From assembly GCA_019456075.1 (NCBI GenBank), contig VRUN01000001.1, positions 1,561 through 65,560 of the forward strand: a DNA stretch of 64,000 nucleotides, given 5' to 3'. The position numbers and the translations under genes are program-made. The DNA comes from Candidatus Methylomirabilota bacterium (GTDB lineage: Bacteria; Methylomirabilota; Methylomirabilia; Methylomirabilales; CSP1-5). Shown piece by piece: positions 28,038 to 62,311 of the stretch. The notes under the pieces were generated by a model. It was given only the letters and a program-made list of their open reading frames with translations. It searched no databases and was not told the origin of the DNA. Each line of letters begins with the position of its first letter. The stretch's first letter is position 1.

Positions 28038-28048
28038 TATAGATATTA

Positions 28049-28104
28049 GCGGTCAGCCGTCAGCTTTTCCAAGACTTCAAGGCGAGTAGCTGACTGCCGA
28101 CCGC
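28049..28104 (-). promoter_or_regulatory. Intercistronic stem-loop between the JAB and E1-like genes
   Basis: 17-nt arms GCGGTCAGCCGTCAGCT (28049-28065) and AGCTGACTGCCGACCGC (28088-28104), 15/17 complementary, 22-nt loop. Fills most of the 71-nt spacer. No Shine-Dalgarno visible before the E1 ATG. Confidence 0.5.
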
Positions 28105-28108
28105 TTCT

Positions 28109-28777: not shown

Positions 28778-28780
28778 CCC

Positions 28781-29575
28781 TTACCCCTCCGGAAGACGAT
28801 AAATCAGGTCCACGAGCTCCGCCCCATCCTCAATCCGAGCCGGAATCCCCCGCCAGGCCATGAGTCCATCCGCTGTCTCACTGAGACCCATCCCCACTGG
28901 CTCCCAATCCACTTCCAGCGGAAAAAGGGGATCCCGCCGGCTCGCCATCTCCCATGCCTCCAGAGTGTCAATCCGACTATCGCGCTTTGCCGCCCGCTGA
29001 AAGCAACTCTCGTCGATCGCCGTATTGAAGCCGGTCCCCCAGAAGAACTCGATGACGCTTTGCACCTTCGCAGTGAGGGCCAGCTCGTCGAACGGGGGCC
29101 GGCCCTGAAGGCATGCCCGACACCTGGCCATGGGAGTGTCAGTGGCAGAAACATTCCAGAGGTTTGACAGGTAAAGAGGGTCGGCATCCGACGTCAGGGG
29201 AGCGGGACGGTAGTAGATCCGCATCTCCTCGAAAGACCCTTGGTGGAAAAGGACGAGGTAGAGGATGTAGGGAAAAGCCAATGCATAATCCCGGGCCGAT
29301 CCCTGCGGCCCGCCGGGGCGCCAGGAGAAGTGGCGGACCTGCGGGGGTTGCTCCACCGTAATCAAGAGGTCCGACCCCCGGCTGAGAACGAAGCGCGTCC
29401 CGATGGGAAGAAGGGGAAGACGGGAGACCCCATCCGTGGCAAAGGGGAGGGCCTGAAGAAACGCAGAGAGGGACACCTCTCGGTCCATCGCTGGCCCCTC
29501 CCGGGAACCATGCCGGAGGAGCCGGACTACCCTTCCCTCGATCTCAATATACTCCCCCATGGATGCCTTCCCCAC
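28781..29575 (-). CDS. Hypothetical 264-aa protein (ORFan; speculative non-canonical E2-like/adaptor)
   Basis: Coherent ORF wedged 3 nt from both neighbours. Alternative ATG at 29560 with GGGGAAGG upstream. Segment FPYILYLVLF...MRIYYRPAPL...LYLSNLWNVSATDTPMARCRAC loosely recalls an E2 beta-meander + Asn + Cys. No family recognised. Confidence 0.6.
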   Translation of the reverse strand: MGKASMGEYIEIEGRVVRLLRHGSREGPAMDREVSLSAFLQALPFATDGVSRLPLLPIGTRFVLSRGSDLLITVEQPPQVRHFSWRPGGPQGSARDYALAFPYILYLVLFHQGSFEEMRIYYRPAPLTSDADPLYLSNLWNVSATDTPMARCRACLQGRPPFDELALTAKVQSVIEFFWGTGFNTAIDESCFQRAAKRDSRIDTLEAWEMASRRDPLFPLEVDWEPVGMGLSETADGLMAWRGIPARIEDGAELVDLIYRLPEG

Positions 29576-29578
29576 ACC

Positions 29579-31324
29579 CTATCCGATGAATCGCGCCTCC
29601 CCAGCCGCGAGGTCCCGGTATCGTTCAGGGAGAAACCGACGGGAGGAACAGTGGGCGACCGTCATCAGCTCCTGATGACGGATCATCTCAGCCGACTGCG
29701 AGGGGATGAAGTCCTCGATCGCCCAGCGGTAATCCTTTTCCCCCACCGTCTTCACCCCCCGAACCCTGGCATGTCGGTACGCCCTGAGCGAAATCTCCTC
29801 GATGTCTGCGCCGGTGATCCGGCCCGGGAACCGCTCCTCACATAGCTCCGCCATGGCGGCAAAATTGACGGCCGCGACGGCAAACCCGTGCTTTTTCGGC
29901 ATGAGCTTAAAGATGGCGACCCGCTCCCCCGCGTCCGGCATGAGGAGAGGAATCCGCTCACTGAATCGGCCCGAACGACGCTCTGCGGGATCGAGCTTGT
30001 CTGGGCGGTTCGTGATCCGGACCCAGAGAACCCTTCCCTGGATTGTAGGATCCCCCGTGAACTCAAAGCGCATCTGACGCAGTCGGTTCGTCACGCCAGA
30101 GTCGCCACTGATTTCATCCCGGGACTGCTCGCTCTGATCTGCCTCGTCCTCGAGAACCACGAGAGGTGTCAACGATCGGAGGGATTGAAGGATTTTCCAA
30201 AAATTTCGCTCGGAGGCCCCCACCCACTTCTCCCGAGGGTTGGTAATCTTGACGAAGTTAAAGCCGCACTCCTTTGCTAAGGCCTCGGCCACGGCGGTCT
30301 TTCCGACGCCAGGCGGCCCCACGAGAGTGACCCCGCGGGGTACCATCTTCAGATCTCCATCCCGAATGGCCTGAATCACCTCCCGGAAAAACTGCTTGAC
30401 CGCCGTGAGCCCCCCGATGGCCTCGAGGCCAAACTCCGGCTCAACGAGCTCGACCATCCCGTAGAGTTCGTGCCGGAGGATCTCCCGCTTCCGCTGTTTG
30501 ATCTCTTCAAACGTCACGGGAGACCCCTTCGCCTTGGCCTGGCGACAGAGCTGCTCGAGATGGAGCCGGGTCAGCCCGGCGGTTGCTCGCGCCAGTTCCT
30601 CTGCGCTCATTGTGAGCCGCACGCCGTCTTCTGCCAGGAGGTGCTCGACATACTGGAGTCGTTCCACCTCATCGGGGAGGGGGACCTCGACCACCTCGAC
30701 CCGGACACCCGGTTGCCGGAGCGCCGGATGCAGGTCGGCCAGATTGCTGACGGTGAGGAGGAGCACCCCGCCCTGCTCGTGCACGGTGCCGTCGGCTGCG
30801 AGGCTGAGGAGGGCCACCAAGTTGGTTCGATCATCCTCATTCATGCAGGAAAAATCTGTGTTTGGGGCGATGGTCTCGGCATACTCCAGGACCGCGATCG
30901 CGCGCCGTTGCCCGTTCCGGAGACGCCCCGACCGCAGGGCTTGACCAATGAGCGGAACAACCTTACTGGGATGAGTGGGGAGCGGGGGAGGCCCGACGCT
31001 TGCCGCCTCACCTAATGCCATCAACGCCCGTTGCCGCTGCTCTTCCAGGTGAACCTCTTGCGGGTCATGAGCGACCTTGAGACCCGTGGCCTCCCGAAAT
31101 CGGTGCTGGGTCTCCTCGTCGGGAAAGCGAAGGCCGGTGGACCGATTGTAGAGAATGACGGGGCTCGTCTCTCCCAGCCACTGGGCGAGAAAGGTGGAAA
31201 AGGGCAGAAACGCCTGGCCGAGGGGGACGTAATCGGCAATATTGTGATGAAGGACGAAGAGGCTCGAGGTCTCTGCCTCGATCCGCTCAGAGAGATCCTG
31301 CGCCCACGGCAGGGTCGGTTTCAT
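29579..31324 (-). CDS. Tandem AAA+ ATPase (degenerate N-terminal AAA-like module + classical AAA module)
   Basis: C-terminal module: GPPGVGKT (Walker A), LVVLEDEAD (Walker B), TNRPDKLDPAERRSGRF (SRH/Arg fingers). N-terminal about 260 aa are AAA-like (AIAVLEYAE, LLLTVSN, VEVPLPDEVERLQY) but lack a P-loop. Confidence 0.9.
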   Translation of the reverse strand: MKPTLPWAQDLSERIEAETSSLFVLHHNIADYVPLGQAFLPFSTFLAQWLGETSPVILYNRSTGLRFPDEETQHRFREATGLKVAHDPQEVHLEEQRQRALMALGEAASVGPPPLPTHPSKVVPLIGQALRSGRLRNGQRRAIAVLEYAETIAPNTDFSCMNEDDRTNLVALLSLAADGTVHEQGGVLLLTVSNLADLHPALRQPGVRVEVVEVPLPDEVERLQYVEHLLAEDGVRLTMSAEELARATAGLTRLHLEQLCRQAKAKGSPVTFEEIKQRKREILRHELYGMVELVEPEFGLEAIGGLTAVKQFFREVIQAIRDGDLKMVPRGVTLVGPPGVGKTAVAEALAKECGFNFVKITNPREKWVGASERNFWKILQSLRSLTPLVVLEDEADQSEQSRDEISGDSGVTNRLRQMRFEFTGDPTIQGRVLWVRITNRPDKLDPAERRSGRFSERIPLLMPDAGERVAIFKLMPKKHGFAVAAVNFAAMAELCEERFPGRITGADIEEISLRAYRHARVRGVKTVGEKDYRWAIEDFIPSQSAEMIRHQELMTVAHCSSRRFLPERYRDLAAGEARFIG

Positions 31325-37897: not shown

Positions 37898-39568
37898 CTA
37901 GAGGCCCGTCGGCGGCTTATACTCTCCAAAGACCTCCCGCAGCAGGCCGCAGATCTCGCCGATCGTCGCATACGCCTTGACCGCATCCAAGATAGGCTCC
38001 ATCAGGTTCTCCCCACCAAGAGCGGCTTCCCGGAGTCGGATCAGGGCCTGCCCCACGGCTTGGCTACTGCGCCGGGCCCGAACCGCGGCGAGCTTCGCCA
38101 TCTGATTCGCGGCTGCCTCGGGGTTCACACGAAAGATTGGGGTGCGCTGCTCCTCGCTGTCGCTGAAGCGGTTCACCCCCACAATGACCCGTTTGCTGTC
38201 CTCAACCTCACGCTGGAACCGGTACGCTTCCTCCTGGATTGTTCGCTGCATATAGCCACGCTCGATGGACGGAACAGATCCACCCATCGCCTCGATCTCT
38301 TCGAGAATTTCCCAGGCCTTTTGCTCCAGCTGATCAGTGAGGGCCTCAACGTGGTAGGAGCCCGCCAGCGGGTCCACGGTATCGACGACGCCGGTCTCAT
38401 AGGCGATGATCTGCTGCGTCCTGAGGGCGATGCGCTGGGCCTCCTCGGTCGGAATGGCTAATGCTTCATCGAAGCAGCTGAGCGCCATTGACTGTACACC
38501 GCCCAAGACCGCCGCGAGGGCTTGCAAGGCCGCCCGGACAATGTTGTTTTCCGGTTGCTGCGCCGTCAGCGTCGAGCCGCCAGTCTGGGTGTGCGTCCGA
38601 AACATCCAGGACCGAGGATCTTTAGCCTGAAACCGCTCCCGCATCAGCTTCGCCCACATCCGCCGTAAGGCCCGGTACTTGGCAACCTCCTCGAAGAAAT
38701 CGTTGTGCGTGTTGAAAATCCAAGAGAGGCGCGGGGCAAACTCGTCAACCGCGATACCCTGTTGTCGAACCGCCTCGACATAGGCGATGGCGTTGGCAAA
38801 GGTAAAAGCCATCTCTTGGGCGGCGGAGGCACCGGCATCACGGATATGGTACCCGCTGATGCTGATGGGGTTCCACCGGGGGATATGTTTTGCACAGTAC
38901 ACGATCAGGTCGGCCGCGAGGCGAAGCGAGGGACCCGGCGGAAAGATGTAGGTCCCCCGAGCGACATACTCCTTCAGCACATCATTCTGGACTGTTCCAG
39001 CCAGCCGCTCCCTCGACACCTGCTGCGTATCGCCGACGGCGATGTACATCGCAACCAGGATCGCCGCCGGGGCGTTGATGGTCATCGAGGTGGTGACCCG
39101 ATCCAGGGGAATGCCGTTGAAGAGGGTCTCCATATCGGCCAGAGAGTCGATGGCCACTCCGACCTGCCCGACTTCCCCCTCCGCCAGGGGGTCATCCGTG
39201 TCCAGGCCCATCTGGGTGGGGAGGTCAAAGGCGACACTCAAACCGGTCTGTCCCTCTTTCAATAGGTACTGAAATCTCTCGTTGCTTTCCTCCGCCGTCC
39301 CCATTCCGGCGTACTGGCGCATCGTCCAAAGCTGGCCGCGGTACATCGTGGGGTAAATCCCCCGGGTGTAAGGGTACTGCCCCGGAAAACCCAAGCTGTC
39401 CACGACATCGAGATCGGCTGTTTCCTCCGGCGTATACAGACGATTCACCGGGATCCCCGACGAGGTGAAAAACTCTCCCCGCTCTTTGAACCGTGCCAGA
39501 GCAGGTTTCAAGACCTGCTCCTCCCAGGCTTTTTTGGCCTCGGCTATCCCCTTGTCCTTATCCGTCAT
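37898..39568 (-). CDS. Methylmalonyl-CoA mutase family, large (catalytic, TIM-barrel) subunit
   Basis: FPGQYPYTRGIYPTMYRGQLWTMRQYAGMGTAEESNERFQYLLKEGQTGLSVAFDLPTQMG. The Tyr in RQYAG is MCM-type. 556 aa without a B12-binding domain. Confidence 0.88.
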   Translation of the reverse strand: MTDKDKGIAEAKKAWEEQVLKPALARFKERGEFFTSSGIPVNRLYTPEETADLDVVDSLGFPGQYPYTRGIYPTMYRGQLWTMRQYAGMGTAEESNERFQYLLKEGQTGLSVAFDLPTQMGLDTDDPLAEGEVGQVGVAIDSLADMETLFNGIPLDRVTTSMTINAPAAILVAMYIAVGDTQQVSRERLAGTVQNDVLKEYVARGTYIFPPGPSLRLAADLIVYCAKHIPRWNPISISGYHIRDAGASAAQEMAFTFANAIAYVEAVRQQGIAVDEFAPRLSWIFNTHNDFFEEVAKYRALRRMWAKLMRERFQAKDPRSWMFRTHTQTGGSTLTAQQPENNIVRAALQALAAVLGGVQSMALSCFDEALAIPTEEAQRIALRTQQIIAYETGVVDTVDPLAGSYHVEALTDQLEQKAWEILEEIEAMGGSVPSIERGYMQRTIQEEAYRFQREVEDSKRVIVGVNRFSDSEEQRTPIFRVNPEAAANQMAKLAAVRARRSSQAVGQALIRLREAALGGENLMEPILDAVKAYATIGEICGLLREVFGEYKPPTGL

Positions 39569-41067: not shown

Positions 41068-41685
41068 TTAGCGGAGAAGCCGCATCAGGAGCTGCTCGTA
41101 CTCCTCAAGAGGAACCGCCCCTACGATCGGCGGTCCCTCGCCGATGACGACGGTCGGGATGGCCCGCACGCCATACTGTGACACTGCCTGTTTATGTTCC
41201 TCTAAAATGCGGTTCCGCTGACTCCCGTGCTCGTAATCCTTGAGAAACTGTTCCATGTCCAGACCAGCCCGCCGGGCTACCTCGATCACTTCCGCAGGTT
41301 GTCCGATGTTGAGCCCCTCCTCAAAGAAGGCCCTGAAGAGGCTGAGGTGCATTCGCTCAAAGGCCTCGACCCCTTGCAGCTCGGCGCACTTGGCCGCCTC
41401 GAGCGCGGGCAGGCTCCACTGGGGGAAGTCGGACCGCGTCCACATCCGAAAGGCGATGCCCACATCCGCCGAAAGGGAAGACGCTTGTCTCCACGCGGCC
41501 TCGCGGTAGGTCCCTTGAAAGGCCGCCGTCGGATCCGGCTCTGGCCGCAGGGCGAAGCTCCACCGGTTGAGATGGATGCGGCCGGGATATCGCTCGTGAA
41601 GCCGCTGCAGGCGGACCGCCGCAGGATAACACCAGGGTCACAAGTAATCAGAGAACTCCAGGATTGGTAGGGGGCTTTCCGGCAT
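41068..41685 (-). CDS. DsbA/FrnE-family thiol-disulfide oxidoreductase, candidate selenoprotein (in-frame TGA at 41640-41638)
   Basis: Frame open from ATG 41685 to TAA 41068 apart from one TGA at codon 16. Translation MPESPLPILEFSDYL-U-PWCYPAAVRLQRL... puts the TGA at the first Cys of the FSDxxCPWCY motif. The ORF track only reports the 3' 131 codons. Confidence 0.65.
41605..41624 (-). promoter_or_regulatory. SECIS-like hairpin 3' of the in-frame UGA
   Basis: mRNA CUGCGGC-GGUCC-GCC(U)GCAG: 7 bp GC-rich stem, one bulged U, apical loop GGUCC starting 21 nt after the UGA. Confidence 0.45.
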
Positions 41686-41729
41686 GATAGCTGATTATAC
41701 CGAGGTCCTCACACGGCGTCCACCGGAGA

Positions 41730-42869
41730 TCATCGTGCGTCCCGCAACCGGTACGAGATGGGGACCCGGATCGTGCCGCGAATCGGTGGGAAGGGCGCGG
41801 CGCGCTTGATGGTCTCCACCGAGGCTTGATCCAAGACGGGAAATCCGGAGGACTTCACCACCGTCACGCCTTCGACGGTCCCATCGCCGGCAATTCGAAA
41901 CTGTACCTCCGCGATCCCCTCTATTCGCAGCCGCCGTGCTCGGGCCGGATACCGCTTGGCGCCTTCGATCCTCCGGAGCAAAAGAACCCGCCAGTCTCCT
42001 CCTCCCCTCCCGATGCCTTCCCCTCTCCCCATCCAGGAACCGCCTTCAATCATCCCCCGAAAGCCCTTTCCATCCCCTTCGCCGGGGTCCGACCCCGAGT
42101 CACCTCTGCCCCCGACCCCGCTTTCCGGGCGGTGTTCCCCTGCCGGCAAGCCGTCGCCCCTTTTTTCCGACTCGGCCCCTGTCGAATCCTTTCCTGTACT
42201 CCCCTCGAGACGACCCCGTTCCTCGGCCGGTGTGGATGGGTTGGGGGACTCGCCTCCGGAGATCTCCTGGAAGGGGACTCGAGGAACCACCGTGAATACG
42301 GCCTTCGCGAGGAGTGAGGGGATCGGAGACGTTGGCCGTTCTAGTTCCATCTGCGCAGGGTGAGGCTCGATGACAACGGATGAGCGTGGAGCAGATGCCG
42401 TCGTGGGCTCCTGGGCTGCGGTTTCGGGTTGCTCCCGTACCGTCGCAATCGGTTCCGGCGGCTTCGTCACGTCCTTCCGTGGAGACTCATGTGATGAGTC
42501 TTTCCTGCGGGCTCGCGGAGAAGCTGACCGATCCGCAGGAGCCCGTCCCTGACGCGAGCGAACCTCTGACGCCCTCGTGCCACTCGCCACACGCTCGCCC
42601 AGAGACCTACTCTGTCTCACCCGCCCCGAGCCGGATGCTCCCCCACCCCCGGGAACGCCACCCACGAGCCAGACCCCTACTGCTCCCTGACCAGGGACGA
42701 GCGGGACCACACCCCACCAGAGCACGAGGAGGAAGATCACCGCGTGAAGAATGAGAGAAGAGATCCACGCATGCGAATGGTGGCGTAGCCAACGGGCCCA
42801 GTTGCGGATCGAAAGCCGCCTCGTTCCGTTCCAACTATTTGTGCCAACTTTATCGCTGCACTCGCTCAT
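41730..42869 (-). CDS. TonB family energy transducer
   Basis: N-terminal TM (WISSLILHAVIFLLVLWWG), long Pro/Ser/Gly/Glu-rich spacer, TonB C-terminal domain (RIEGIAEVQFRIAGDGTVEGVTVVKSSGFPVLDQASVETIKRA). ATG 42869 chosen to avoid overlap with the receptor gene. Confidence 0.8.
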   Translation of the reverse strand: MSECSDKVGTNSWNGTRRLSIRNWARWLRHHSHAWISSLILHAVIFLLVLWWGVVPLVPGQGAVGVWLVGGVPGGGGASGSGRVRQSRSLGERVASGTRASEVRSRQGRAPADRSASPRARRKDSSHESPRKDVTKPPEPIATVREQPETAAQEPTTASAPRSSVVIEPHPAQMELERPTSPIPSLLAKAVFTVVPRVPFQEISGGESPNPSTPAEERGRLEGSTGKDSTGAESEKRGDGLPAGEHRPESGVGGRGDSGSDPGEGDGKGFRGMIEGGSWMGRGEGIGRGGGDWRVLLLRRIEGAKRYPARARRLRIEGIAEVQFRIAGDGTVEGVTVVKSSGFPVLDQASVETIKRAAPFPPIRGTIRVPISYRLRDAR

Positions 42870-42922
42870 GTCCCTTGCACCAAGGCAGGCCACCGAAGTC
42901 GGCTTATCAAGATGGAACGGCA

Positions 42923-45007
42923 CTACTCATAGAACCCCGACAATTCCAAAACGGCGCCTGCCAGGAAGCTAATCCCGGGAGCTGGCATAAAGCGCGGGCC
43001 AAACGCAAGACCCCACGTTTCATATTCACTATTTGTAATGTTATTTCCCTGCAGGAAGAGGGTAAGCGGTCCCCACCGGTACCGTACTTTCCCGTTCATC
43101 ACGTAATAGGCAGGCAGTGGCTGCCCCTGGTTCGCCTCGTCCCCCGAGAGAAACTGCGAACCCACGTACAGACCGGTGAGCGACACCGTCAGGCCCTCGA
43201 TCGGATAGACGTTCACCCCCCAGCCGACGCGATTCCGCGGGACGAGGGGAATGTCATTTCCTTCGCGGGCCAGCCCCGAGACTAATAACGCGTCGGTCTC
43301 GAAGGTCGCCTGGATATAGGAATAGTTGACAAACCCGTCAACCAGCTCCCCGTATCGTCCCCGCAGCGTCAGCTCAACCCCCCGACGCCGAGTCTCATCC
43401 ACGTTCTCATTCATCCCGGTGAACGGACCGGTGGGCACGAACAAGATTTCATCTTTCACATCGGTCTGAAAAAGCGCCATCGTTCCCTGAAAGGACTCTC
43501 CCACGCGCACCCGTGTCCCCAGTTCGAAGGTGCGGGATGTGGGTGCCTCCAGGGTCGGGTTCGACGAAAAGGGAGCAAAAGCGAAAAGTTCATTCACCGT
43601 CGGGCTGCGGGATCCCTCCGAGTAACTGAAATAGACCACGACCTCCGGATCCGGATTCGTCGCAACCCAGGTCAATCCCGCCATGGGATTGAATCGTCCG
43701 AAGGTCCGGAGGCGATCCTTCGTGGGGTCGAGCTTATCGCTGAAGTCAATCCTGTCATAGTCGTAACGTCCCCCGGCGCTGAGGATGAGGACTTCCGGGA
43801 TAAGATCGAAGCTGTCTTGGAAGAAGACGCCCAGGGTCTTCCCGTCGGTCTCCTGGTCGCTCGGAAAGGTGCCGGAGTCAGTGCCCATAGTGTCGCTCTG
43901 CGTATACTCAACGCCGACCACAAAGACGTTCCGACGATCGAAGGGGGTCGCCTCGTGTGTCACTTGGGCTATTCCGCCGCCGGTGGTGATGTCGGTCTTA
44001 GTCTGACTTGTCCCCCCACTGAGGAAGACATCAAAGCTATCCTGCTGCACATTCCGGATGAAGGCGTTGAGCGCGACTGAAAAGCCAGCCGGAAGATTCT
44101 GTCGCACGTTAAGGGTGCCTGCGTGAAGCGTGCGCTCGATGGAGTCGCCCGGGGGCAGGTTGGCGCTCTGGGTCCGGTCCTGCGCCAATTGAGCTTCCGT
44201 GAGGGAGCCAGGCCGCCCCAGGCTATCGTCCACGAAGAGGTAGGACAGGGTGACGTCGGTCCCCGGATTGCCAATGCGGCGGCCGACCTTGGTAAAGAAC
44301 TGTGTCACATCGGAGTCGGAGTCGTCCCGGAAACCGTCCGCCAGCTCTTGGGTAAATCCGAGGTAGTAGTCGAAGTCCCCGACGGGACCGCCGACACTCC
44401 CCCGATATCGCTGGTGGCCAAAACTGCCGCCGGCCACCTCGAACGTGGCCTCGGGCACCGGTCCTCCCCGCTTCGTCTGCAGATTGACGACCCCCGCCAA
44501 GGTGTTCCTTCCAAAGATGGACTGGGTCCCGGGAATGACTTGAATCCCTTGTAGGTCTTTCACCGGGATCAGACTCCAGTCAACGGAGTTGAGTCCGGGG
44601 TTGTTGACGCGGACCCCGTCGAGGATCACCGTGGTCGTCGTGATCGGTTCACCGCTGAAGCCCCGCATGTCCAGGGTCGGTTCAAAGGAATTCCCGGTGA
44701 GGTTGTACAGGGTAATCCCAGGCTCAGTCTTGATGATCTCTGGAACCGTGTCTGCCCCTGACGTCTCGATCTCCTTCTCGGTCACGGAGCGGACCTGCCC
44801 CGGATACCGGCGGAGATCGAGGGGGACGTCCGGAAGGCGCGTCGTGGAGACGGTCACCCTAGGAAGCTGGACGACTTCCTCTCCCTCATTGGTTTTCTGT
44901 TCTTTGGTTTTCTCTTCCCCGGACTTTTCCTGGGCCGAGGCCGCCCCGACCAGCAATCCGATCACCACCACGCAAAGCAGCCAAGTCCTAAAAGCATTGG
45001 AACCCAT
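42923..45007 (-). CDS. TonB-dependent outer-membrane receptor (BtuB-like by riboswitch context)
   Basis: Signal peptide, TonB-box-like VVQLPRVTVS, plug domain and long beta-barrel. Cobalamin riboswitch in the 5' leader. Confidence 0.9.
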   Translation of the reverse strand: MGSNAFRTWLLCVVVIGLLVGAASAQEKSGEEKTKEQKTNEGEEVVQLPRVTVSTTRLPDVPLDLRRYPGQVRSVTEKEIETSGADTVPEIIKTEPGITLYNLTGNSFEPTLDMRGFSGEPITTTTVILDGVRVNNPGLNSVDWSLIPVKDLQGIQVIPGTQSIFGRNTLAGVVNLQTKRGGPVPEATFEVAGGSFGHQRYRGSVGGPVGDFDYYLGFTQELADGFRDDSDSDVTQFFTKVGRRIGNPGTDVTLSYLFVDDSLGRPGSLTEAQLAQDRTQSANLPPGDSIERTLHAGTLNVRQNLPAGFSVALNAFIRNVQQDSFDVFLSGGTSQTKTDITTGGGIAQVTHEATPFDRRNVFVVGVEYTQSDTMGTDSGTFPSDQETDGKTLGVFFQDSFDLIPEVLILSAGGRYDYDRIDFSDKLDPTKDRLRTFGRFNPMAGLTWVATNPDPEVVVYFSYSEGSRSPTVNELFAFAPFSSNPTLEAPTSRTFELGTRVRVGESFQGTMALFQTDVKDEILFVPTGPFTGMNENVDETRRRGVELTLRGRYGELVDGFVNYSYIQATFETDALLVSGLAREGNDIPLVPRNRVGWGVNVYPIEGLTVSLTGLYVGSQFLSGDEANQGQPLPAYYVMNGKVRYRWGPLTLFLQGNNITNSEYETWGLAFGPRFMPAPGISFLAGAVLELSGFYE

Positions 45008-45038
45008 GGAACACCTCCCCTTCCGCGAAAGTGATGTT

Positions 45039-45201
45039 CGCCTTCCCCCGGAAAAGGTTTCCTGGCTCGTGGATCATCGCCCCCCTGCGCCTTCCCATCC
45101 CTCGATAAACTCGGGACAGTGGCATGTTGCAGGGTGGCTCCCCACTTACAGTGGCGGGACCGTGCTGGACTTGCACCAGCTTCCCTTTGATCCGGGGGCG
45201 T
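45039..45201 (-). promoter_or_regulatory. Cobalamin riboswitch 1 (leader of the TonB-dependent receptor operon)
   Basis: Minus strand: AAAGGGAAGCUGGUGCAAGUCCAGCACGGUCCCGCCACUGUAAGUGGGGAG ... GCCACUGUCCC...GGGAUGGGAAGGCG ... B12 box GAGCCAGGAAACC. P1-like pairing CGCCCCCGG / CCGGGGGAAGGCG. No terminator follows. Confidence 0.85.
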
Positions 45202-45203
45202 AC

Positions 45204-45224
45204 TGGTTCATGGTTCATGGTTCA
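45204..45224. repeat. Perfect heptamer tandem repeat x3
   Basis: TGGTTCA TGGTTCA TGGTTCA on plus (TGAACCA x3 on minus), immediately 5' of riboswitch 1 and 25 nt after the ABC ATPase stop. Confidence 0.9.
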
Positions 45225-45249: not shown

Positions 45250-46026
45250 TTACAGACGGGGAAGGATGCGGATCTTGCCCGTCTCTGGATCAGTGTCGAT
45301 CCAGACGGCGCAGCCATACGCCTTTTCTATGATCTCCGGCTGCATCACCTCCTCTGGTAAGCCGGCGGTAAGGACCGTCCCCTCCTTGAGCAGGACGAGC
45401 CGGTCCGAAACCGCCGCCGCCGCGTTGAGATCGTGTGAGACCAAGATGATGGTCAGTCCGCGTTCAGCCTGTAGTCGCTTGAGCAGCCCCAAGATCTCGA
45501 CCTGATGGCTGAGGTCGAGATGAGTCGTGGGCTCATCGAGCAGCAGGAGTTGGGGCTGCTGGGCCAAGGCGCGCGCAATAACCACCCGCTGCTTCTCGCC
45601 GCTCGAGAGTTGATCGAGATACTTGGCTGCTAGGTGAGCCGTCACTGTCTCGTCCATCGCGTGCTCCGTCGCCCGGCGATCCTCCGCCGTCTCGAGGCCG
45701 ATCCCCCGAGCGTGCGGGTACCGCCCCATGGCGACGACCTGCTCTACGGTAAAGGGAAAGGCCACCTGAAATTCCTGAGGAACCACCGCCACGGTTCGCG
45801 CGACTTCCCGTTTAGTGAGAGCGTTGAGGTCGCGGCCATAGAGGGAAATCGTCCCCGCCTCGCCAATGAGGACCCGACTGAGCAAACGCAAGAGGGTCGT
45901 CTTGCCCGCGCTGTTGGGCCCGATGATTCCCAAGACCTCCCCCGCCTCGACGGTTAACGAAATCCCATTCAGGACGCGCCCATTGCGATAGCTGAAGTAC
46001 AGATCGTGAACCTCGACCGCCTTCAT
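45250..46026 (-). CDS. ABC transporter ATPase (BtuD/FepC-like, iron-siderophore/cobalamin family)
   Basis: GPNSAGKTTLLRLLS (Walker A), LSSGEKQRVVIARAL (signature), LLLLDEPTTHLD (Walker B). ATG 46026 overlaps the permease stop (ATGA). The 620-aa ORF in the track is a frame-run-on artefact. Confidence 0.9.
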   Translation of the reverse strand: MKAVEVHDLYFSYRNGRVLNGISLTVEAGEVLGIIGPNSAGKTTLLRLLSRVLIGEAGTISLYGRDLNALTKREVARTVAVVPQEFQVAFPFTVEQVVAMGRYPHARGIGLETAEDRRATEHAMDETVTAHLAAKYLDQLSSGEKQRVVIARALAQQPQLLLLDEPTTHLDLSHQVEILGLLKRLQAERGLTIILVSHDLNAAAAVSDRLVLLKEGTVLTAGLPEEVMQPEIIEKAYGCAVWIDTDPETGKIRILPRL

Positions 46027-47051
46027 GGAGAGACACTCCGATACCGGCTCCGGAGCAAGTAGGCAAAGAAGGGAGCACCCAGAAACGCAGTGATGGCCCC
46101 GACCGGGATCTCTGTCGGTGCCACCACCGTCCGGGCCACGATATCCGCCAGGATGAGAAAGATCGCCCCGGCAAGGAGAGAGGCGGGGATGACCACCCGG
46201 TTGTCCGGGCCAAGGCAGAGACGCACGGCGTGAGGAACCATGAGGCCGACGAAGGCAATCGAGCCGCTCGCCGAGACGGCGGCACCTGTGACCAGACTGC
46301 AGGCCACAAAAATGATCCGTTTTACGCGCTCTGGTTCCACGCCGAGCTGGGCCGCCGCCTCTTCCCCTGCCGACAGGAGGTTCAGGGGAAGGACTTGCGC
46401 ATAGATCAGCGCGGTGCCGATGAGCAGGCAGCCCACGACGATGCCGATGGTGGGATAGCTCACAACGCGGAGATTCCCCATGAGGTAGAACACGACCCCC
46501 TGAAGCTCTTCCGCTTGCATCAAGGCCGAGGCCAGCATGATGGCCGAGCTGAAGAACAGAGAGACCACCACTCCGGCGAGGAGCAGCGTGTGAACGGGAA
46601 GGCGACCGTCGATGCTCGCGATGCCATAAACCACGACTGCGGCCACCAGTGCCCCCACAAAGCCGAAAAGGGGCAAGAAGAGGATGCCGGCCCCGGCGCC
46701 CAGGCCCGTCAGGACCCCGAGCACGACCCCGAAAGCTGCCCCACTCGAGACGCCGAGGACATAGGGATCGGCCAGAGGGTTGCGCGAGATCGCTTGAAAT
46801 CCCGCGCCCGCTAACGCCAGGGCAGACCCCACAATGCCGGCGAGGAGCGTTCTGGGGAGTCGCAGGCTCAGCACGATGGTCTCGTGCGTCTCTGTCCAGG
46901 AAACGGGATTGGGCAAAAGCTTCCCAAAGAAGATTCCCACGATCTCGCCCAATCCTACCTGGACCGTCCCCACCGACAGGGCGAGGACGATCGACCCCAC
47001 AAGCCCGGCGGTCAGGATCCCCATGACCGTCAGCAGCCGGGTGGGCGTCAT
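46023..47051 (-). CDS. FecCD-family ABC permease (BtuC-like)
   Basis: 342 aa, about 9-10 TM. RLPRTLLAGIVGSALALAGAGFQAISRNPLADPYVLGVSSGAA. Confidence 0.9.
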   Translation of the reverse strand: MTPTRLLTVMGILTAGLVGSIVLALSVGTVQVGLGEIVGIFFGKLLPNPVSWTETHETIVLSLRLPRTLLAGIVGSALALAGAGFQAISRNPLADPYVLGVSSGAAFGVVLGVLTGLGAGAGILFLPLFGFVGALVAAVVVYGIASIDGRLPVHTLLLAGVVVSLFFSSAIMLASALMQAEELQGVVFYLMGNLRVVSYPTIGIVVGCLLIGTALIYAQVLPLNLLSAGEEAAAQLGVEPERVKRIIFVACSLVTGAAVSASGSIAFVGLMVPHAVRLCLGPDNRVVIPASLLAGAIFLILADIVARTVVAPTEIPVGAITAFLGAPFFAYLLRSRYRSVSP

Positions 47052-47941
47052 GAACTCCTCCCACCAAAGGCCCCCGGGTGGAGGAGATGCCCCAAGAGTT
47101 CCACGGCCTCAACGATCCTGGGCCCAGGACGATTGATCAGGTTGGCGTCAATTACGCGAACGGCCCCTTCCCGAACCGCCCGCATCTCTCTCCACCCTGG
47201 CAAGCGACGAAGGACCTCCCGGTCTTCAGGGACGCCACCGTCTAAGGCCAGGAGGATCACATTGGGTGCCTGGACCACGACCCGTTCAAGGCTGTACCGA
47301 GAAAACCCGGGTGTCCGCACGACGTTCACTCCCCCCGCCACGGCGATAAGTCCATCAATGACGGTCCCTCGGCCGGCCACAATAAGGGGATCGATCCAGA
47401 CCACATACAGGACTTCGGGTCGTGGAAGGTCTTGAACCTTCTCGGAAACCGTCGCCATGCGTCGCCGCATGTCGGCGATCAATCGCCCTGCCTCCTGCCG
47501 CCTCCCGACCACCTCCCCGACTTTTGCGATGGAGACAAAGACCCCTTCCACTCCCACCGGCTTTACTCCGAAGACCGGGATCTGGAGCTGCTCGAGTTGG
47601 GTGATGGTATCCCAGCGGTTCGCATCAGCGGAGACAAGAACCAGATCCGGTCTGAGGGCGACGATCACCTCCAGATTCGGGTTGATGCCGCCGCCCACGC
47701 TCGGCTTTGCCTCGACCTCGGGCGGATAGGTGGCATAGTCGGTCACCCCCACCACCGCATCACCCGCGCCGAGCGCATAGAGGATCTCGGTCAGGCTCGG
47801 CGCCAATGAGATGATGCGATGGGGTGGCCCGTGAAGTGCCACGCGCCGTCCCACCATATCGACAAGGGTGGCCGCGTGAACCGGAAGTCCCACGACGAGG
47901 AGCAAGAGAATCCAGGACGTCTTTGCCCCCGGTTTCCCCAT
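47048..47941 (-). CDS. Periplasmic substrate-binding protein (BtuF-like, cluster A-2)
   Basis: Signal peptide MGKPGAKTSWILLLLVVGLPVHA, then RIISLAPSLTEILYALGAGDAVVGVTDY. ATG 47941 overlaps the cobQ stop (TGATG). Confidence 0.85.
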   Translation of the reverse strand: MGKPGAKTSWILLLLVVGLPVHAATLVDMVGRRVALHGPPHRIISLAPSLTEILYALGAGDAVVGVTDYATYPPEVEAKPSVGGGINPNLEVIVALRPDLVLVSADANRWDTITQLEQLQIPVFGVKPVGVEGVFVSIAKVGEVVGRRQEAGRLIADMRRRMATVSEKVQDLPRPEVLYVVWIDPLIVAGRGTVIDGLIAVAGGVNVVRTPGFSRYSLERVVVQAPNVILLALDGGVPEDREVLRRLPGWREMRAVREGAVRVIDANLINRPGPRIVEAVELLGHLLHPGAFGGRSS

Positions 47942-49446
47942 CACTTCTCCCCTTCGAGCAATTGATAGATAGCGACCATATCGAGGTGGGTGCGGACCAA
48001 ATCCGCCATGCGATCGAACTCGCGGTCCAGGTTCCAATCCTGGATGCCGACCGGGCAGGGAAGTCCCTTGGCCTCCCACAGCTCTTTGAGAAACCGGTGC
48101 CGGAAGGATGCGTTATCGAAGAGACCATGAATGTTACTCCCCCAGATCCTTCCGCTGACGCTTCGAGCCCCATCGGAGATGCGGACCGGCTGCCCCGAGC
48201 GCTCCAAGACCTCAAAAGCGGGCGTGGTTCCATCCAATGGAACGGAGACCCCGTGGTGGATTTCGTATCCCGTCACCTCATCGCCGCTCCACCGGCACCT
48301 AGCCCGGACCTGATGGGTAACCTTTTCTCGGCAAAAGAGGGTCGCGACCTGGAGGAGTCCAAGACCTACGACGTGGTCCCGCTCTGACTCCACCTGATCC
48401 GGGTCAGCGATGTACGTTCCAAGCATTTGATAGCCGCCACAGATGCCGACGACGACCTTTCCACTCGCCGCTGCCCGCCTGATGGCATCGGCGAGACCCC
48501 GTTCCCGCAAGTAGTCGAGATCCGCCACGGTACTTTTGCTCCCCGGCAGGATCAGGCAATCGCTCTCGGCAATCTCTTCGGGACCCCGAACAAATGTGAG
48601 CGTAACCTCGGGCTGTGCGGCGATGGGGTCAAAATCGGTGAAGTTTGACAAGTGAGGAAGGGCAACGACACCAATCCGAACGCGGTGGTTGTTCGTCTCC
48701 GCTCCGCCTGGCTTCAAGCGCTCCGGGAGAGCATCTTCCTCGGGGAGACGCAGGTCCCGGCAAAAGGGGATGACCCCGAAGACGGGCTTGCCGGTCCTCG
48801 CCGTGAGGAAGATCAGGCCGGGATCCAGGAGCGCTTTATCTCCTCGGAATTTGTTGATGACGAACCCGGCCACCCGGTCCCGCTCTTCCGGTTCGAGCAG
48901 CTCCAGGGTGCCGACGAGTGCGGCGAAGACGCCGCCTTTGTCGATATCCCCAACCAGGAGGACCGGCGCATCTGCGATCTCGGCGACCGGCATGTTCACC
49001 AAATCCCGGTCGCGAAGGTTGACCTCGGCCGGAGACCCCGCCCCTTCAATGAGGACGACATCGTACTCCGCCGCCAGGCGCTCAAAAGCCTCGTGGACCA
49101 CACGGCGAAGCGCCGGAATCTGCTCGACGCCGTATGCAGCCGCCGAGAAGGTCCCAATCGGCCGGCCCAAGACAATCACTTGAGCGTCGGTGTCGTTCGT
49201 CGGCTTGAGCAGGATCGGATTCATCTGGACCGAGGGCACGACGCGGGCAGCCTGCGCTTGCACTGCTTGGGCTCGGCCAATCTCGCCCCCGTCAGGCGTG
49301 ACGAAGGAGTTTAAGGCCATGTTCTGCGCCTTGAAGGGCGCAACGCGGTAGCCGTCTTGAGCGAGGACGCGACACAGCGCCGCCACCAGGACACTCTTGC
49401 CGACGTGCGAGGCGGTCCCCTGCACCATGAGGCTTCGCGCTGGCAT
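47941..49446 (-). CDS. cobQ: Cobyric acid synthase
   Basis: SLMVQGTASHVGKSVLVAALCRVLAQDGYRVAPFKAQNMALNS plus a C-terminal GATase1-like domain (ICGGYQMLG). Confidence 0.93.
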   Translation of the reverse strand: MPARSLMVQGTASHVGKSVLVAALCRVLAQDGYRVAPFKAQNMALNSFVTPDGGEIGRAQAVQAQAARVVPSVQMNPILLKPTNDTDAQVIVLGRPIGTFSAAAYGVEQIPALRRVVHEAFERLAAEYDVVLIEGAGSPAEVNLRDRDLVNMPVAEIADAPVLLVGDIDKGGVFAALVGTLELLEPEERDRVAGFVINKFRGDKALLDPGLIFLTARTGKPVFGVIPFCRDLRLPEEDALPERLKPGGAETNNHRVRIGVVALPHLSNFTDFDPIAAQPEVTLTFVRGPEEIAESDCLILPGSKSTVADLDYLRERGLADAIRRAAASGKVVVGICGGYQMLGTYIADPDQVESERDHVVGLGLLQVATLFCREKVTHQVRARCRWSGDEVTGYEIHHGVSVPLDGTTPAFEVLERSGQPVRISDGARSVSGRIWGSNIHGLFDNASFRHRFLKELWEAKGLPCPVGIQDWNLDREFDRMADLVRTHLDMVAIYQLLEGEK

Positions 49447-49449
49447 CGT

Positions 49450-50826
49450 TTAACCCTTTCGCCCTGCAAACATAGACCGGAGCCGGCTTGGGAGGTCTTG
49501 GAGAAGCGATGGATTTGAGGCGAGGTGTAGATGGGTATATGAGGCGAACACTCCATTCTTCACCACGCCTTCCTCCTCCACCCGCCCCATCGAATCGACC
49601 GACCTGAGAGCACGCAGTCCCGCCTCGGCGGTGAGATGTGAGTAGTGGAATTCATGTCCCTTCAAGCGATCCCCGGCGCGGAAGAAAAAACCAGGCCTCA
49701 GCACCTCGACCTCTTTATACTTCAGGGCCTGCAGGCGCTCGGTCATGGCGGTCTGGATCGGCAGGAGACCCGCCATCGGGAAGGATCGTCCCTCGGAGGT
49801 TGTTAGGGTCTCCCCGAGGTACATGAATCCGCCGCACTCGCCGTAAACAAGCCCGCCCTCCCTCTCGAACCGACGGACCGCCTCTCTCATCGCCACGTTG
49901 CGGGAAAGCGGCTCGGCAAAGAGCTCGGGAAAGCCCCCACCGAGGTAGAGGAGATCGGCTGCCGGAAGGGCCGTGTCGTGCAGGGGGGAGAACTCCACCA
50001 CCCGAAAGCCCCAACGCCGAAGCAGATCGAGATTATCTTCATAATAGAAGGTAAACGCCTCATCTCGGGCCACCGCGAGGCGAAACTCCGGACGCCTCGG
50101 GGGGGAAGCAAAGAGGATTGGGGCGGGGTCAGGGAGGGGAGAAGCCTGGCGTGCAATCCCAAGGATCTGCGGGAGATCGAGGTGGTCTCGCACGTGTTCA
50201 GTAATCTGCCGACATCGTTCCTCTGCCCCCTTTCCCTCCTGAAAGGGGACAAGTCCCAAATGCCGTTCGGGTAGCCGGATCTCTGGCAGGAACGGAATCG
50301 CCCCCACGACCGGCAGGCCCGCTCGTTCAACCGCCTGGCGGACGGCCCGCTCGTGCGCCTCGCCGGCAATCCCGTTCAAGATCACCCCGTCAAGCCGTAC
50401 CGCAGGATCGAAGGTCCGAAAGCCTAATGCCTTCGCCCCGAGTGAAGAGGAAGAGCGCCACGCATCCAGCACGAGAAGCACCGGTGTCTGAAGTACCTTG
50501 GCCAGATGTGCGGTGCTCCCTGTGTCGTCGGGATAGGCCCCGTCGAAGAGTCCCATCACCCCCTCAATCACTGCCACGTCGGCCGGCGCCCCATGATGGA
50601 TGAAAAGTTCCAGGACCGCCGCTTGCGAAAGCATCCACAAGTCCAGATTCCGTCCCGGACGACCGGTGACCGCCCCATAGTACGAGGGGTCGATGTAATC
50701 TGGGCCGGTCTTGAATCCCTGCACCGTGAGCCCAGTGGCGGCGAGGGCCCCCATCAGACCAATGGCGACAGTGCTCTTGCCGCACCCGCTCTCCTCCCCG
50801 GCCACCATCACCCGCGCCATCGGCAT
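49450..50826 (-). CDS. cbiA: Cobyrinic acid a,c-diamide synthase
   Basis: VMVAGEESGCGKSTVAIGLMGALAATGLTVQGFKTGPDYIDPSYY plus C-terminal GATase (YGECGGFMYLG). ATG 50826 lies downstream of the leader terminator; the ORF-track start 50925 runs into the riboswitch. Confidence 0.9.
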   Translation of the reverse strand: MPMARVMVAGEESGCGKSTVAIGLMGALAATGLTVQGFKTGPDYIDPSYYGAVTGRPGRNLDLWMLSQAAVLELFIHHGAPADVAVIEGVMGLFDGAYPDDTGSTAHLAKVLQTPVLLVLDAWRSSSSLGAKALGFRTFDPAVRLDGVILNGIAGEAHERAVRQAVERAGLPVVGAIPFLPEIRLPERHLGLVPFQEGKGAEERCRQITEHVRDHLDLPQILGIARQASPLPDPAPILFASPPRRPEFRLAVARDEAFTFYYEDNLDLLRRWGFRVVEFSPLHDTALPAADLLYLGGGFPELFAEPLSRNVAMREAVRRFEREGGLVYGECGGFMYLGETLTTSEGRSFPMAGLLPIQTAMTERLQALKYKEVEVLRPGFFFRAGDRLKGHEFHYSHLTAEAGLRALRSVDSMGRVEEEGVVKNGVFASYTHLHLASNPSLLQDLPSRLRSMFAGRKG

Positions 50827-50841
50827 CTTTTCGTCAGCCCC

Positions 50842-50875
50842 AAAACAAAAAGCCCCAACCTTTCCCGGTTGGGGC
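50842..50875 (-). terminator. Intrinsic terminator forming the expression platform of riboswitch 2
   Basis: Minus strand GCCCCAACC-GGGAAA-GGUUGGGGC followed by UUUUUGUUUUG, ending 16 nt before the cbiA ATG. Confidence 0.7.
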
Positions 50876-51127
50876 TCCCGTCGCCCTGAGATTTCTGGTG
50901 TCCTTGGACACCGCTCCCAGCTCACGCGGTGGCCTCTCCCTCGAAAGGCCTAAACAATTCCGCAGGGCTGGGCAGGTTTCCTGGCTCGCGGGTCCTCTTA
51001 CTCTCCGCGCCTTCCCATCCCGCATCGCGGGACAGTGGCCTGTGCGGATTTCATCACCGCTCACAGTTGCGGGGCAGCAGTGGATTCCTCCCGATGATTC
51101 GGGAATACGCCACTTTCCCTAACACCC
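50842..51127 (-). promoter_or_regulatory. Cobalamin riboswitch 2 (leader of cbiA-cobQ-btuFCD-like operon)
   Basis: Minus strand: UUAGGGAAAGUGGCG...GGGAGGAAUCCACUGCUGCCCCGCAACUGUGAGCGG...GCCACUGUCCCGCGAUGCGGGAUGGGAAGGCGC... B12 box GAGCCAGGAAACCUGCC, then a terminator hairpin. Confidence 0.85.
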
Positions 51128-51152
51128 AGCCCGCTATTCAAATGTGGATTGA

Positions 51153-52251: not shown

Positions 52252-52280
52252 ATCGTAGGAGGTTGCTCTATGGCTGTCAA
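52252..52280 (-). promoter_or_regulatory. Sigma70-like promoter candidate for the response-regulator gene
   Basis: Minus strand: TTGACA (52280-52275), 17 nt, TACGAT (52257-52252). Implies a 5' UTR of about 160 nt. Confidence 0.4.
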
Positions 52281-52353
52281 GGAAAGTCGCTGCAAATCCC
52301 TCGTCTCTGCCCGTCCGGCCGTCTCCGGGGAGGCTGTGCACGGCTCGCCATGC

Positions 52354-53589
52354 TCAGGAGCCGTCGAGCGGACCCGCTGCCGGCTCGTCGCCAAGGAGGA
52401 GGACCCGCACCTCGCTCCCCGGCGTGATTTCGGTCTCGCCCGGGACACAGGCAAGCCCATCAGCATAGGCCATGGAATGAAGCATCGCCGAGCCCTGATC
52501 CCCGGTGAGGCGCGCGGTGTATCCTGCACGCGTCGGCGTCAAGATCACCCGCAAGTAGGCCGGCCGGCGATCCTTATTGCGAATGGGCTGAACCGTGGTA
52601 GCCGTGATCTCCGGGTGAAACACACTCCGCTGATCCTGCATCTTCCTCAGGGCCGGCCGAACAAAAAGTTCGAAGGTCACCATGCAAGAGATGGGATTCC
52701 CCGGCAGCGCAAAGACCGGTTTCCCTTCGAGGAGAGCAAAGGTGAAGGGCTTGCCTGGCCGCATGTGGACCCCCCGGACCCGAACATCGGCCCCCAGCTC
52801 GTGCAGGGTGTCAGCCATGAGGTCGAAGTCTCCGACCGACACCCCGCCGGACGTCAGGAGCAGATCCGACCGGACTCCCTCCCGCAGGTGTCGGGCCAGC
52901 AGGTCTTTCCTGTCGGCCACCGGCCCGAGGAGAACCGGCAGCCCTCCGGCTTGAAGCACCTGGGCCCCCAAGGCGTAGCTGTTGCTGTTGTGAATCTTTC
53001 CCGGCGCAGGCATCTCGTCCCATCGCAGGAGCTCATCCCCGGTGGCAAAGATACCCGCGCGGGGGCGGTGATAGACCGCTACCCGCCTCTTCCCCAGAGC
53101 AGCCAAAAGCCCAATGACCCCCGGCCGACAGAAAGCTCCTGTGGGAAGGACCTGCTCTCCCGCTTTGACATCCTCCCCCCCGTAGCGAACATTCTGGCCG
53201 GGCCCGACTTGCCGAAGGATCAAAACCCCCTGATCAGAAGCCTGGGTGTCCTCCTGCCGAATGACGGCATCGGCACCCCGAGGCAATGGGGCCCCCGTCA
53301 TGATCCTGATGACCTGTCCGTTTTCGAGAACGCCATCAAAAATCTGACCCGCCCCGACGGTCCCGATGAGCCGCAGCATGACCGGCTGCTCATGACTCGC
53401 CCCACGGCTATCTTCAGCCCGGAGGGCGAATCCGTCCATGGCCGAGTTGTCCCAAGGGGGGATCGGTTCCGGCGCAATGACGTCTTCGGCCAAAACCCGA
53501 CCGAGAGCATCGAGGAGCTCCACATACTCCCAACCGACCTTCTCGACCGAGTCGAGCACTATCTGTTGAGCCTGCTCAACCGAAATCAT
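52354..53589 (-). CDS. moeA: Molybdopterin molybdenumtransferase MoeA
   Basis: MISVEQAQQIVL...APEPIPPWDNSAMDGFA...SGGVSVGDFD...FALPGNPISCMVTFELFVRPAL. Confidence 0.92.
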   Translation of the reverse strand: MISVEQAQQIVLDSVEKVGWEYVELLDALGRVLAEDVIAPEPIPPWDNSAMDGFALRAEDSRGASHEQPVMLRLIGTVGAGQIFDGVLENGQVIRIMTGAPLPRGADAVIRQEDTQASDQGVLILRQVGPGQNVRYGGEDVKAGEQVLPTGAFCRPGVIGLLAALGKRRVAVYHRPRAGIFATGDELLRWDEMPAPGKIHNSNSYALGAQVLQAGGLPVLLGPVADRKDLLARHLREGVRSDLLLTSGGVSVGDFDLMADTLHELGADVRVRGVHMRPGKPFTFALLEGKPVFALPGNPISCMVTFELFVRPALRKMQDQRSVFHPEITATTVQPIRNKDRRPAYLRVILTPTRAGYTARLTGDQGSAMLHSMAYADGLACVPGETEITPGSEVRVLLLGDEPAAGPLDGS

Positions 53590-53740
53590 CCCCTATACTC
53601 TCCAACACCGGCTATCGTGCCGATCATTGGCCATCGTATAACCGACGGGACACCATGGCAAGGCGGAATTTCTGGAGAATCCGTGTTGGCGGGGTGCTAG
53701 GAAAAAAGCCATGTGGCCTGAGTCTTGAACTTACTTCATG

Positions 53741-54637: not shown

Positions 54638-54670
54638 GTTCTCAACAATTCAGAGGATCACGTTGAAGGA

Positions 54671-59604: not shown

Positions 59605-59650
59605 CGCTCTCTCCGATGACCGAGATCCGACGTCCGACGCCCGTTCACCT

Positions 59651-62310: not shown

Positions 62311-62311
62311 C

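Follow-up and report, generated by a model that had tools for sequence, protein, structure and literature searches.

A reading frame with an in-frame TGA at the catalytic cysteine of a DsbA/FrnE-like protein very probably encodes an unannotated selenoprotein in a Methylomirabilota bacterium

The stretch analysed here, 64,000 nucleotides of contig VRUN01000001.1 from a Candidatus Methylomirabilota bacterium (assembly GCA_019456075.1) and called the window below, carries on its minus strand a DsbA-like gene interrupted by an in-frame TGA. The initial annotation had placed the start of the listed open reading frame (ORF) of 131 aa at 41463, followed the same frame up to an ATG at 41685 and counted a single TGA on the way, at codon 16; all of these coordinates are correct. 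Indeed, the mechanical ORF list holds a 131-aa ORF with a GTG start (41068..41463, minus strand) that lies in the same frame as the full gene, and the frame from the ATG is open throughout but for the lone TGA at 41640-41638. The translation reads MPESPLPILEFSDYL, the TGA, and then PWCYPAAVRLQRL..., continuous with the listed ORF; past the TGA it is also given, after the same MPESPLPILEFSDYL, as PWCYPAAVRLQRLHERYPGR..., with no break into that ORF. The TGA takes the place of the first Cys in the DsbA motif, in the context FSDYL-U-PWC (U standing for selenocysteine, Sec), which would give an active site U16-P-W-C19. With Cys substituted for the stop, residues 8-200 match the Pfam family DSBA (PF01323) with 85.7 bits against a cut-off of 25.6 (E=4.6e-24). 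The coordinates of the gene and of its features are collected in Table 1.

Table 1. Positions of the DsbA-like gene and of its sequence features in the window.
Feature	Position	Strand	Description
Coding sequence of the predicted DsbA-like selenoprotein	41068..41685	-	205 codons plus TAA stop (41070-41068); ATG start 41685-41683
Putative Sec-encoding UGA, codon 16	41638..41640	-	where the CPWC motif has its nucleophilic first Cys
Cys19 codon TGT	41629..41631	-	resolving Cys of the U-P-W-C redox motif; TGC or TGT in every locus
SECIS-like hairpin CUGCGGC-GGUCC-GCC(U)GCAG	41605..41624	-	apical loop 41617-41613; invariant G 41616 and U 41615; bulged U 41609
Promoter-like site: TGGACG, 17-nt spacer, TATAAT	41694..41722	-	TATAAT 41699-41694, 8 nt before the ATG
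Codons of I176-P177-T178, the thioredoxin-fold 'cis-Pro' loop packing against the active site	41152..41160	-	invariant in the alignment; aligned to IPT of YjbH

The evidence that carries our interpretation comes from relatives of the gene. A scan with one genome per GTDB species gave 111 relatives, of which 80 loci with 42-84% identity were kept. They belong mostly to Methylomirabilota, including Rokubacteria, and otherwise to Tectomicrobia/Entotheonellaceae, Nitrospinota and Binatia, together with one Sulfotelmatobacter (Acidobacteriota) and one 'Proteobacteria' metagenome-assembled genome (MAG). The tblastn alignments cross residue 16 in all 80 loci, and a TGA stands at the codon-16 position in 80/80 of them, each in a different species-level genome; as these loci were retrieved by peptide motifs typical of the clade, this count holds for the clade rather than for the DsbA family or superfamily at large. 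The TGA is flanked upstream by (F/Y/H)(S/A/G)D(Y/F)(L/V) and downstream by PWC(Y/F)PAAVRL. It is also retained in a relative with only 27% identity (L085), which lies on a contig of 43% GC and reads VFSDYL-TGA-PWCYLAAVRL. Moreover, the five codons upstream of the TGA have entropies of 0.36, 0.35 and 0.85 at codon positions 1, 2 and 3, which is a coding periodicity, and across loci both TCN and AGC codons are used for the Ser upstream of the TGA. These two properties indicate that the segment upstream of the TGA is translated. This comparative evidence lies far outside what chance would give.

The same data bear on the possibility that the gene is a DsbA-family pseudogene, inactivated when a nonsense mutation struck the codon of the catalytic Cys. 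A one-base change is enough to turn TGC or TGT into TGA, and public gene calls leave the upstream part non-coding. However, decay would have to account for an identical TGA in 80/80 loci of different species and in the 27%-identical relative, for the lack of any other disruption and for a codon periodicity and a protein conservation that hold to either side of the TGA; nor are the loci assembly copies of one sequence, given their range of identity and their different taxa. We therefore regard a pseudogene as extremely unlikely. The initial annotation had asked whether orthologues would show diverse disruptions. None was found, since all 80 loci have their TGA at this one codon, with conserved flanks.

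In public records the gene is called as fragments of 125-183 aa with no selenoprotein annotation, and the contigs of environmental assemblies that match the window have it as a 125-aa call. Likewise, the best 120 homologues from a collection of 5.8 billion proteins cover at most 89% of the query; all are N-truncated and begin with 'MRLQRL...' at the codon matching V24, just past the CPWC position. Such a truncation is the artefact to be expected of gene callers that stop at a TGA. Taken at face value, these calls would mean that translation starts at GTG 41616 (V24) or GTG 41463, the starts chosen by gene callers, to give a truncated DsbA-like product without the redox motif, the upstream part being an untranslated leader. 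We find this very unlikely: the product would lose strand beta-1 and the entire UxxC site of the thioredoxin fold; protein-level conservation holds for the 15 upstream codons, whose third positions vary and whose serines switch between TCN and AGC as described above; and the conserved promoter-like box adjoins the upstream ATG, not the downstream GTG. A product made only from the 41463 start, which the initial annotation had considered, is likewise at odds with the coding periodicity of the upstream segment. The N-terminus and the start position are themselves conserved in relatives, and in 44/49 loci whose start is marked by a -10-like box the start codon lies 13-15 codons ahead of the TGA.

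Joining ORFs across a TGA is by itself a common event in such DNA. A scan of the whole window for ORF pairs joined by TGA gave 150 candidates, a number typical for GC-rich DNA, and none of them has a UxxC or CxxU context except the DsbA-like gene. Among the models of NCBIfam, none reaches its cut-off for the protein, the best being a thioredoxin-like selenolipoprotein family, with a score of 56 against 190.

Homologues with Cys at the position of the UGA were also found. We searched 1.84 billion representatives exhaustively with HMMER, using the part of the protein that follows the UGA. Full-length relatives of the Cys form, with at most 42% identity, carry (Y/F)SDYL-C-PWC, with Cys exactly where the UGA stands (YSDYL-C-PWC in P0127, P0134, P0135, P0136, P0142 and others). 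Past this motif the sequence is variable among the Cys forms (YNAAV, YVAST, FNSQI...) but invariant among the Sec forms. By sequence, Geobacillus YjbH (6GHB, E=2.3e-9) is the nearest protein of solved structure, and its CPEC has the first Cys in the column of the UGA. The claim that the TGA falls on the nucleophilic Cys of the DsbA/FrnE motif is thus borne out by both the Cys-form homologues and YjbH.

Directly past the UGA, the messenger RNA (mRNA) can form the hairpin proposed by the initial annotation, which is present, with its bulged U, where that annotation had placed it (Table 1). It spans 13-33 nt downstream of the UGA, and its apical loop begins 20-21 nt after it. In the consensus model of the bacterial selenocysteine insertion sequence (bSECIS) of Zhang & Gladyshev, as summarised in PMC13188914, the apical loop has 3-9 nt, the upper stem at least 4 bp, a G stands at the first or second loop position (usually as G[G|U]), the UGA lies 16-37 nt from the loop and the minimum free energy (MFE) is at or below -7.5 kcal/mol. 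The hairpin of the window agrees with all four criteria of this model, having the loop G(GUC)C, a spacing of 20-21 nt and an energy of -11.1 kcal/mol. So do 67/78 distinct family sequences when folded without constraint. In each of the 78, one of three registers allows 5-7 canonical pairs that leave the invariant G28 and U29 in the loop; 58 of the sequences reach seven pairs.

The strongest RNA-level signal of the hairpin comes, on this alignment, from synonymous sites: third positions in the stem are frozen, while those in the loop are free. In the stem, Ala22 has an entropy (H) of 0.10, being GCG in 80/81 sequences, against 1.0-1.6 for other conserved Ala columns, and Arg25 has 0.42 against 1.4-1.8 for other conserved Arg columns. 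The values for the two remaining stem codons are 0.80 for Pro21 (other conserved Pro columns, 0.88-1.66) and 0.79 for Leu26 (other conserved Leu columns, 0.72-1.69). In the loop, the third positions of Ala23 and Val24 reach 1.05 and 1.48. Explicit counting of pairs in the majority register found 88% of cells paired, compared with 39-58% when the partners were slid. Furthermore, U-A and C-G alternate at one pair of the lower stem (21-38, in the register of the window), the combination GCA/CGG in one relative (L010) makes an A-U pair in a stem without bulge, and the core of the hairpin is retained in the relative of 43% GC. Altogether, the UGA, its flanks and the core of the hairpin would seem, from these comparisons, to be under purifying selection across many species.

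Several observations weigh against reading the UGA as a Sec codon with its own SECIS, besides the motif-based retrieval of the loci mentioned above. First, strict compensatory (double) changes in the hairpin are few. The fold of the single sequence is not better than that of shuffles (z=-0.6), and its energy is only about 1 sd better than that of synonymous recodings of the same peptide (mean z=-0.94); taken by itself, folding energy is a weak argument. On the 78-sequence alignment RNAalifold missed the hairpin and returned an unrelated 4-bp structure. We attribute this miss to the shifted registers used by different clades, and explicit-register pair counting was used in its place. On this point alone is the initial proposal overstated: the hairpin agrees with the bSECIS model in 67/78 sequences, but its stability is unremarkable in itself. 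Second, two of four Cys-form genes retain a similar hairpin with G-U in the loop at the place of the SECIS (L086 301-891 and L087 55-765, with CPWCWPAAVRL and CPWCYVAAVRL assigned in that order), and the other two (L088, L089) lack one. From this it follows either that part of the pairing is inherent in the codons for Ala-Ala-Val-Arg-Leu or that the hairpin is a fossil of a former SECIS; in L086 and L087 it may be such a fossil, left by a reversion from Sec to Cys. We had considered the Cys-form genes as a natural negative control for the hairpin; with two of four keeping one, this control is not clean.

Third, the machinery of Sec insertion was not seen near the gene. Our searches for it covered the 64-kb window and the roughly 85 fetched loci, and no selA, selB, selD or tRNA-Sec came up in either. 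ARAGORN found no tRNA or tmRNA gene in the window and hence no tRNA-Sec, SelA, SelB and SelD are absent from the roughly 40 window ORFs scanned with Pfam, and ARAGORN detected no tRNA-Sec in 84 related loci. The Rfam scan of the window returned two cobalamin riboswitches and nothing else. A 99-nt 'tRNA-Met (CAT)' that ARAGORN reported in one related locus, about 2 kb upstream of the DsbA-like gene (L024, 1829-1927, plus strand), has no Rfam support and was set aside as a probable false positive. The use of Sec by the source lineage rests, in our analysis, on literature at the level of the phylum: a Methylomirabilota MAG with 63 predicted selenoprotein genes is reported (Deng et al. 2026, cited in PMC13188914), and Sec-type [NiFeSe] hydrogenases are described in Methylomirabilota by a 2026 study, which gives selABCD in about 90% of genomes with Sec-type hydrogenases overall (PMC13582414).

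These results also bear on which amino acid is inserted. The UGA could be recoded to Cys or to another residue. A tRNA(ReC) of the SelC* type might do so with the help of SelB and the SECIS, or near-cognate read-through might when selenium is scarce. SelC*-type tRNAs are discussed for genomes with Sec-type hydrogenases (PMC13582414), and the window gives no clue to the tRNA that decodes UGA-16. On the other hand, a genome in need of Cys could use TGC, as the Cys forms do. That TGA and SECIS are strictly kept in over 80 species points to an advantage peculiar to Sec, and Methylomirabilota are reported as Sec users; such a recoding is in our view quite unlikely. Finally, the UGA would be an ordinary sense codon, for Trp or Gly for instance, if it were reassigned throughout the genome. 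TGA ends 12/31 Pfam-supported genes of the window as an ordinary stop, which speaks against any genome-wide reassignment, and homologues have Cys in this column rather than Trp or Gly. We give this explanation practically no chance of being right.

The region ahead of the ATG carries a promoter-like site. The initial annotation had pointed out a perfect TATAAT 8 nt upstream of the ATG and no Shine-Dalgarno sequence. The box is there, and no Shine-Dalgarno sequence is visible upstream of ATG 41685. The site has 10/12 matches in a consensus scan, which found one site where 0.2 were expected, and its -35/-10 pattern is kept in the close relatives L001-L009. More broadly, 49/81 family members have a strong -10-like box (TAGAAT in most) 4-12 nt ahead of an in-frame start codon, compared with a mean of 0.5 and a maximum of 3 in shuffles. 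Since the promoter-like site abuts the start codon, the mRNA of the gene probably has no leader or almost none. The pattern in relatives suggests leaderless mRNAs for the family, in which no more than 10-16 codons would separate the 5' end from the Sec codon.

The predicted protein is consistent with a cytoplasmic oxidoreductase. By inspection, the N-terminus MPESPLPILEFSDYL contains no hydrophobic leader or signal peptide and passes at once into strand 1 and the active site; from this lack of a signal peptide we infer a cytoplasmic location. An AlphaFold2 model of residues 17-205 has a predicted local distance difference test score (pLDDT) of 85.4 and a predicted template modelling score (pTM) of 0.81. 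Its best Foldseek matches (E=2.5e-6 to 1.6e-4) include VP2116, FrnE, YjbH, 2IN3 and SCO1869, with TM-scores of 0.76 to D. radiodurans FrnE and 0.77 to SCO1869; further structural matches are HCCA isomerase/kappa-GST and the cytosolic reductase DsbM. The modelled fold is DsbA-like: a thioredoxin fold into which a helical domain is inserted. Helix 1 follows U-P-W-C directly, beginning at residue 20 (residue 4 of the model). By analogy with these proteins, the product would work as a cytoplasmic thiol-disulfide oxidoreductase of the DsbA/FrnE type with Sec as nucleophile, and its task is likely cytoplasmic reduction or isomerisation rather than periplasmic oxidation. A third Cys, Cys100 (EAAKC; codon at 41386-41388, minus strand), lies in the helical domain and is near-invariant in the Sec clade.

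Altogether, the gene is, with a high degree of confidence, a genuine Sec-decoded gene for a cytoplasmic DsbA/FrnE-like thioredoxin-fold oxidoreductase of 205 residues. The UGA in 80/80 loci, the Cys homologues and the conserved hairpin support the view of the initial annotation that it is a UxxC selenoprotein rather than a pseudogene. By the established bacterial mechanism, a ribosome reaching UGA-16 would meet the hairpin 13-33 nt downstream, whose apical loop presents G-U; this loop would recruit SelB-GTP-Sec-tRNA(Sec), and Sec would be inserted in place of termination. Judging from the family, Sec16 at the N-terminus of helix alpha-1 would be the attacking nucleophile and would cycle between a selenolate and a selenenylsulfide with Cys19, reducing or isomerising disulfides of substrates. 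The gene would be expressed from its own promoter abutting the start codon, translation probably beginning on a leaderless mRNA. Beyond the single gene, we tentatively propose, with somewhat less than even confidence, that it belongs to an old clade of always-Sec cytoplasmic DsbA-like proteins. This clade would extend over at least five phyla and down to 27% identity, with a SECIS core (GCG GCN GUN CGC) frozen whatever the GC content of the genome; its members would typically be leaderless, with Sec 10-16 codons from the 5' end, and nearby Cys forms with a 'fossil' hairpin would be reversions from Sec to Cys.

The DsbA-like gene is flanked by a pair of genes for a TonB-dependent receptor and TonB, controlled by a B12 riboswitch, and by genes for an acyl-CoA dehydrogenase and a methylmalonyl-CoA mutase. 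This synteny (TonB/BtuB, acyl-CoA dehydrogenase, methylmalonyl-CoA mutase) is limited to about nine of the closest Methylomirabilales loci, and for this reason we rejected a functional link of the gene to B12. Clustering of conserved neighbours over the 80 loci gave no family-wide gene partner and was dominated by spurious high-GC ORFs. The two cobalamin riboswitches of the window lie at 45033-45211 and 50954-51144 (both minus strand; 108 and 103 bits). One heads the TonB-dependent receptor (42923-45007) and TonB (41730-42923), and the other two CobQ/CobB-type amidotransferases, a BtuF-like binding protein and an ABC ATPase (45250-50925); the B12-dependent methylmalonyl-CoA mutase is at 37898-39568.

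Elsewhere in the window, a cluster at 27354-31324 (minus strand) encodes a ThiF/E1-like protein, a Prok-JAB protein, a 264-aa protein without Pfam match and an AAA ATPase. It has weak PADLOC matches to E1-E2/BilD and IetA/TRIP13 and may be an operon for ubiquitin-like conjugation or related to defence. Three consecutive ORFs of 476, 298 and 330 aa at 52270-55663 have no Pfam match at E <= 1e-5. At 57634-63535 (minus strand) lie the cytochrome c maturation genes CcmF, CcmE, CcmB and a CcmA-like ABC ATPase, followed by a complex I subunit of the NuoD type.

By domain and motif, the gene adds a so far unannotated member to a known selenoprotein family, in a phylum for which a wealth of selenoproteins had been reported before, and it leaves the known picture of Sec decoding unchanged. 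Its value lies mainly in the correction of an annotation and in an unusually clean and deeply conserved example of Sec and SECIS. Indeed, it exposes a systematic error, namely fragments of 125-183 aa without active site across hundreds of public Methylomirabilota and Rokubacteria records. As no NCBIfam model reaches its cut-off for the protein, selenoproteome counts and redox inventories of these abundant soil and groundwater bacteria are likely underestimated for the DsbA-like family. Furthermore, why Sec is retained could be studied on this Sec/Cys pair, which is well supported and very strictly conserved within its cytoplasmic DsbA-like scaffold, and the ultra-conserved hairpin would offer a clean substrate for work on SelB-SECIS recognition beyond Proteobacteria and Firmicutes.

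Compared with FrnE (DR0659), SCO1869, VP2116, P. aeruginosa DsbM and YjbH/SpxH, the protein has the same predicted fold, the same lack of an export signal, a motif of the CPxC type at the N-terminus of helix 1 and a conserved cis-Pro loop. Sequence matches to these FrnE-like proteins have E-values from 2e-9 to 3e-5, with an identity of only about 20-27%. The protein differs from them by Sec in place of Cys and by the additional Cys100. FrnE has chains of 260 residues, a C239 mutant being mentioned in titles of the Protein Data Bank (PDB), and the Cys-containing C-terminal tail of FrnE is absent here, where the chain ends with ...EQLLMRLLR at residue 205, without Cys. The classical periplasmic DsbA of E. 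coli (CPHC) shares the thioredoxin fold with an inserted helical domain and the CxxC-type active site, but the protein described here has no signal peptide, gives weak and partial sequence matches only and has no evident partner of the DsbB type. It is not a classical exported DsbA.

At the RNA level, the hairpin resembles the fdhF-type SECIS of E. coli in its position directly 3' of the UGA and in its small apical loop with G-U in the first positions; the distance from UGA to loop falls within the range of 16-37 nt, the MFE is below -7.5 kcal/mol and one U of the stem is unpaired, as in the fdhF-type and consensus bSECIS. It differs from the fdhF SECIS in having no likeness of primary sequence and in carrying the unpaired U on the 3' side of the stem, and the register of the lower stem differs among clades of the DsbA-like family.

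A DsbA-like UxxC selenoprotein family (COG2761/PF01323) was first described in the selenoproteome of the Sargasso Sea (Zhang, Fomenko & Gladyshev 2005, PMC1088965). DsbA-like selenoproteins were listed for Anaeromyxobacter, Desulfovibrio and Desulfotomaculum in 2006 (PMC1794560), and the family was catalogued in 2026 as 'DsbA-like protein form 1' (PMC13188914). Likened to this form by domain and motif, the protein of the window shares with it the PF01323 domain, a UxxC in which Sec replaces the first Cys, a SECIS within the coding region just past the UGA, and widespread Cys homologues. What sets the present clade apart is its distribution, mainly in Methylomirabilota and Rokubacteria, and the frozen state of both U-PWC-YPAAVRL and the core of the hairpin.

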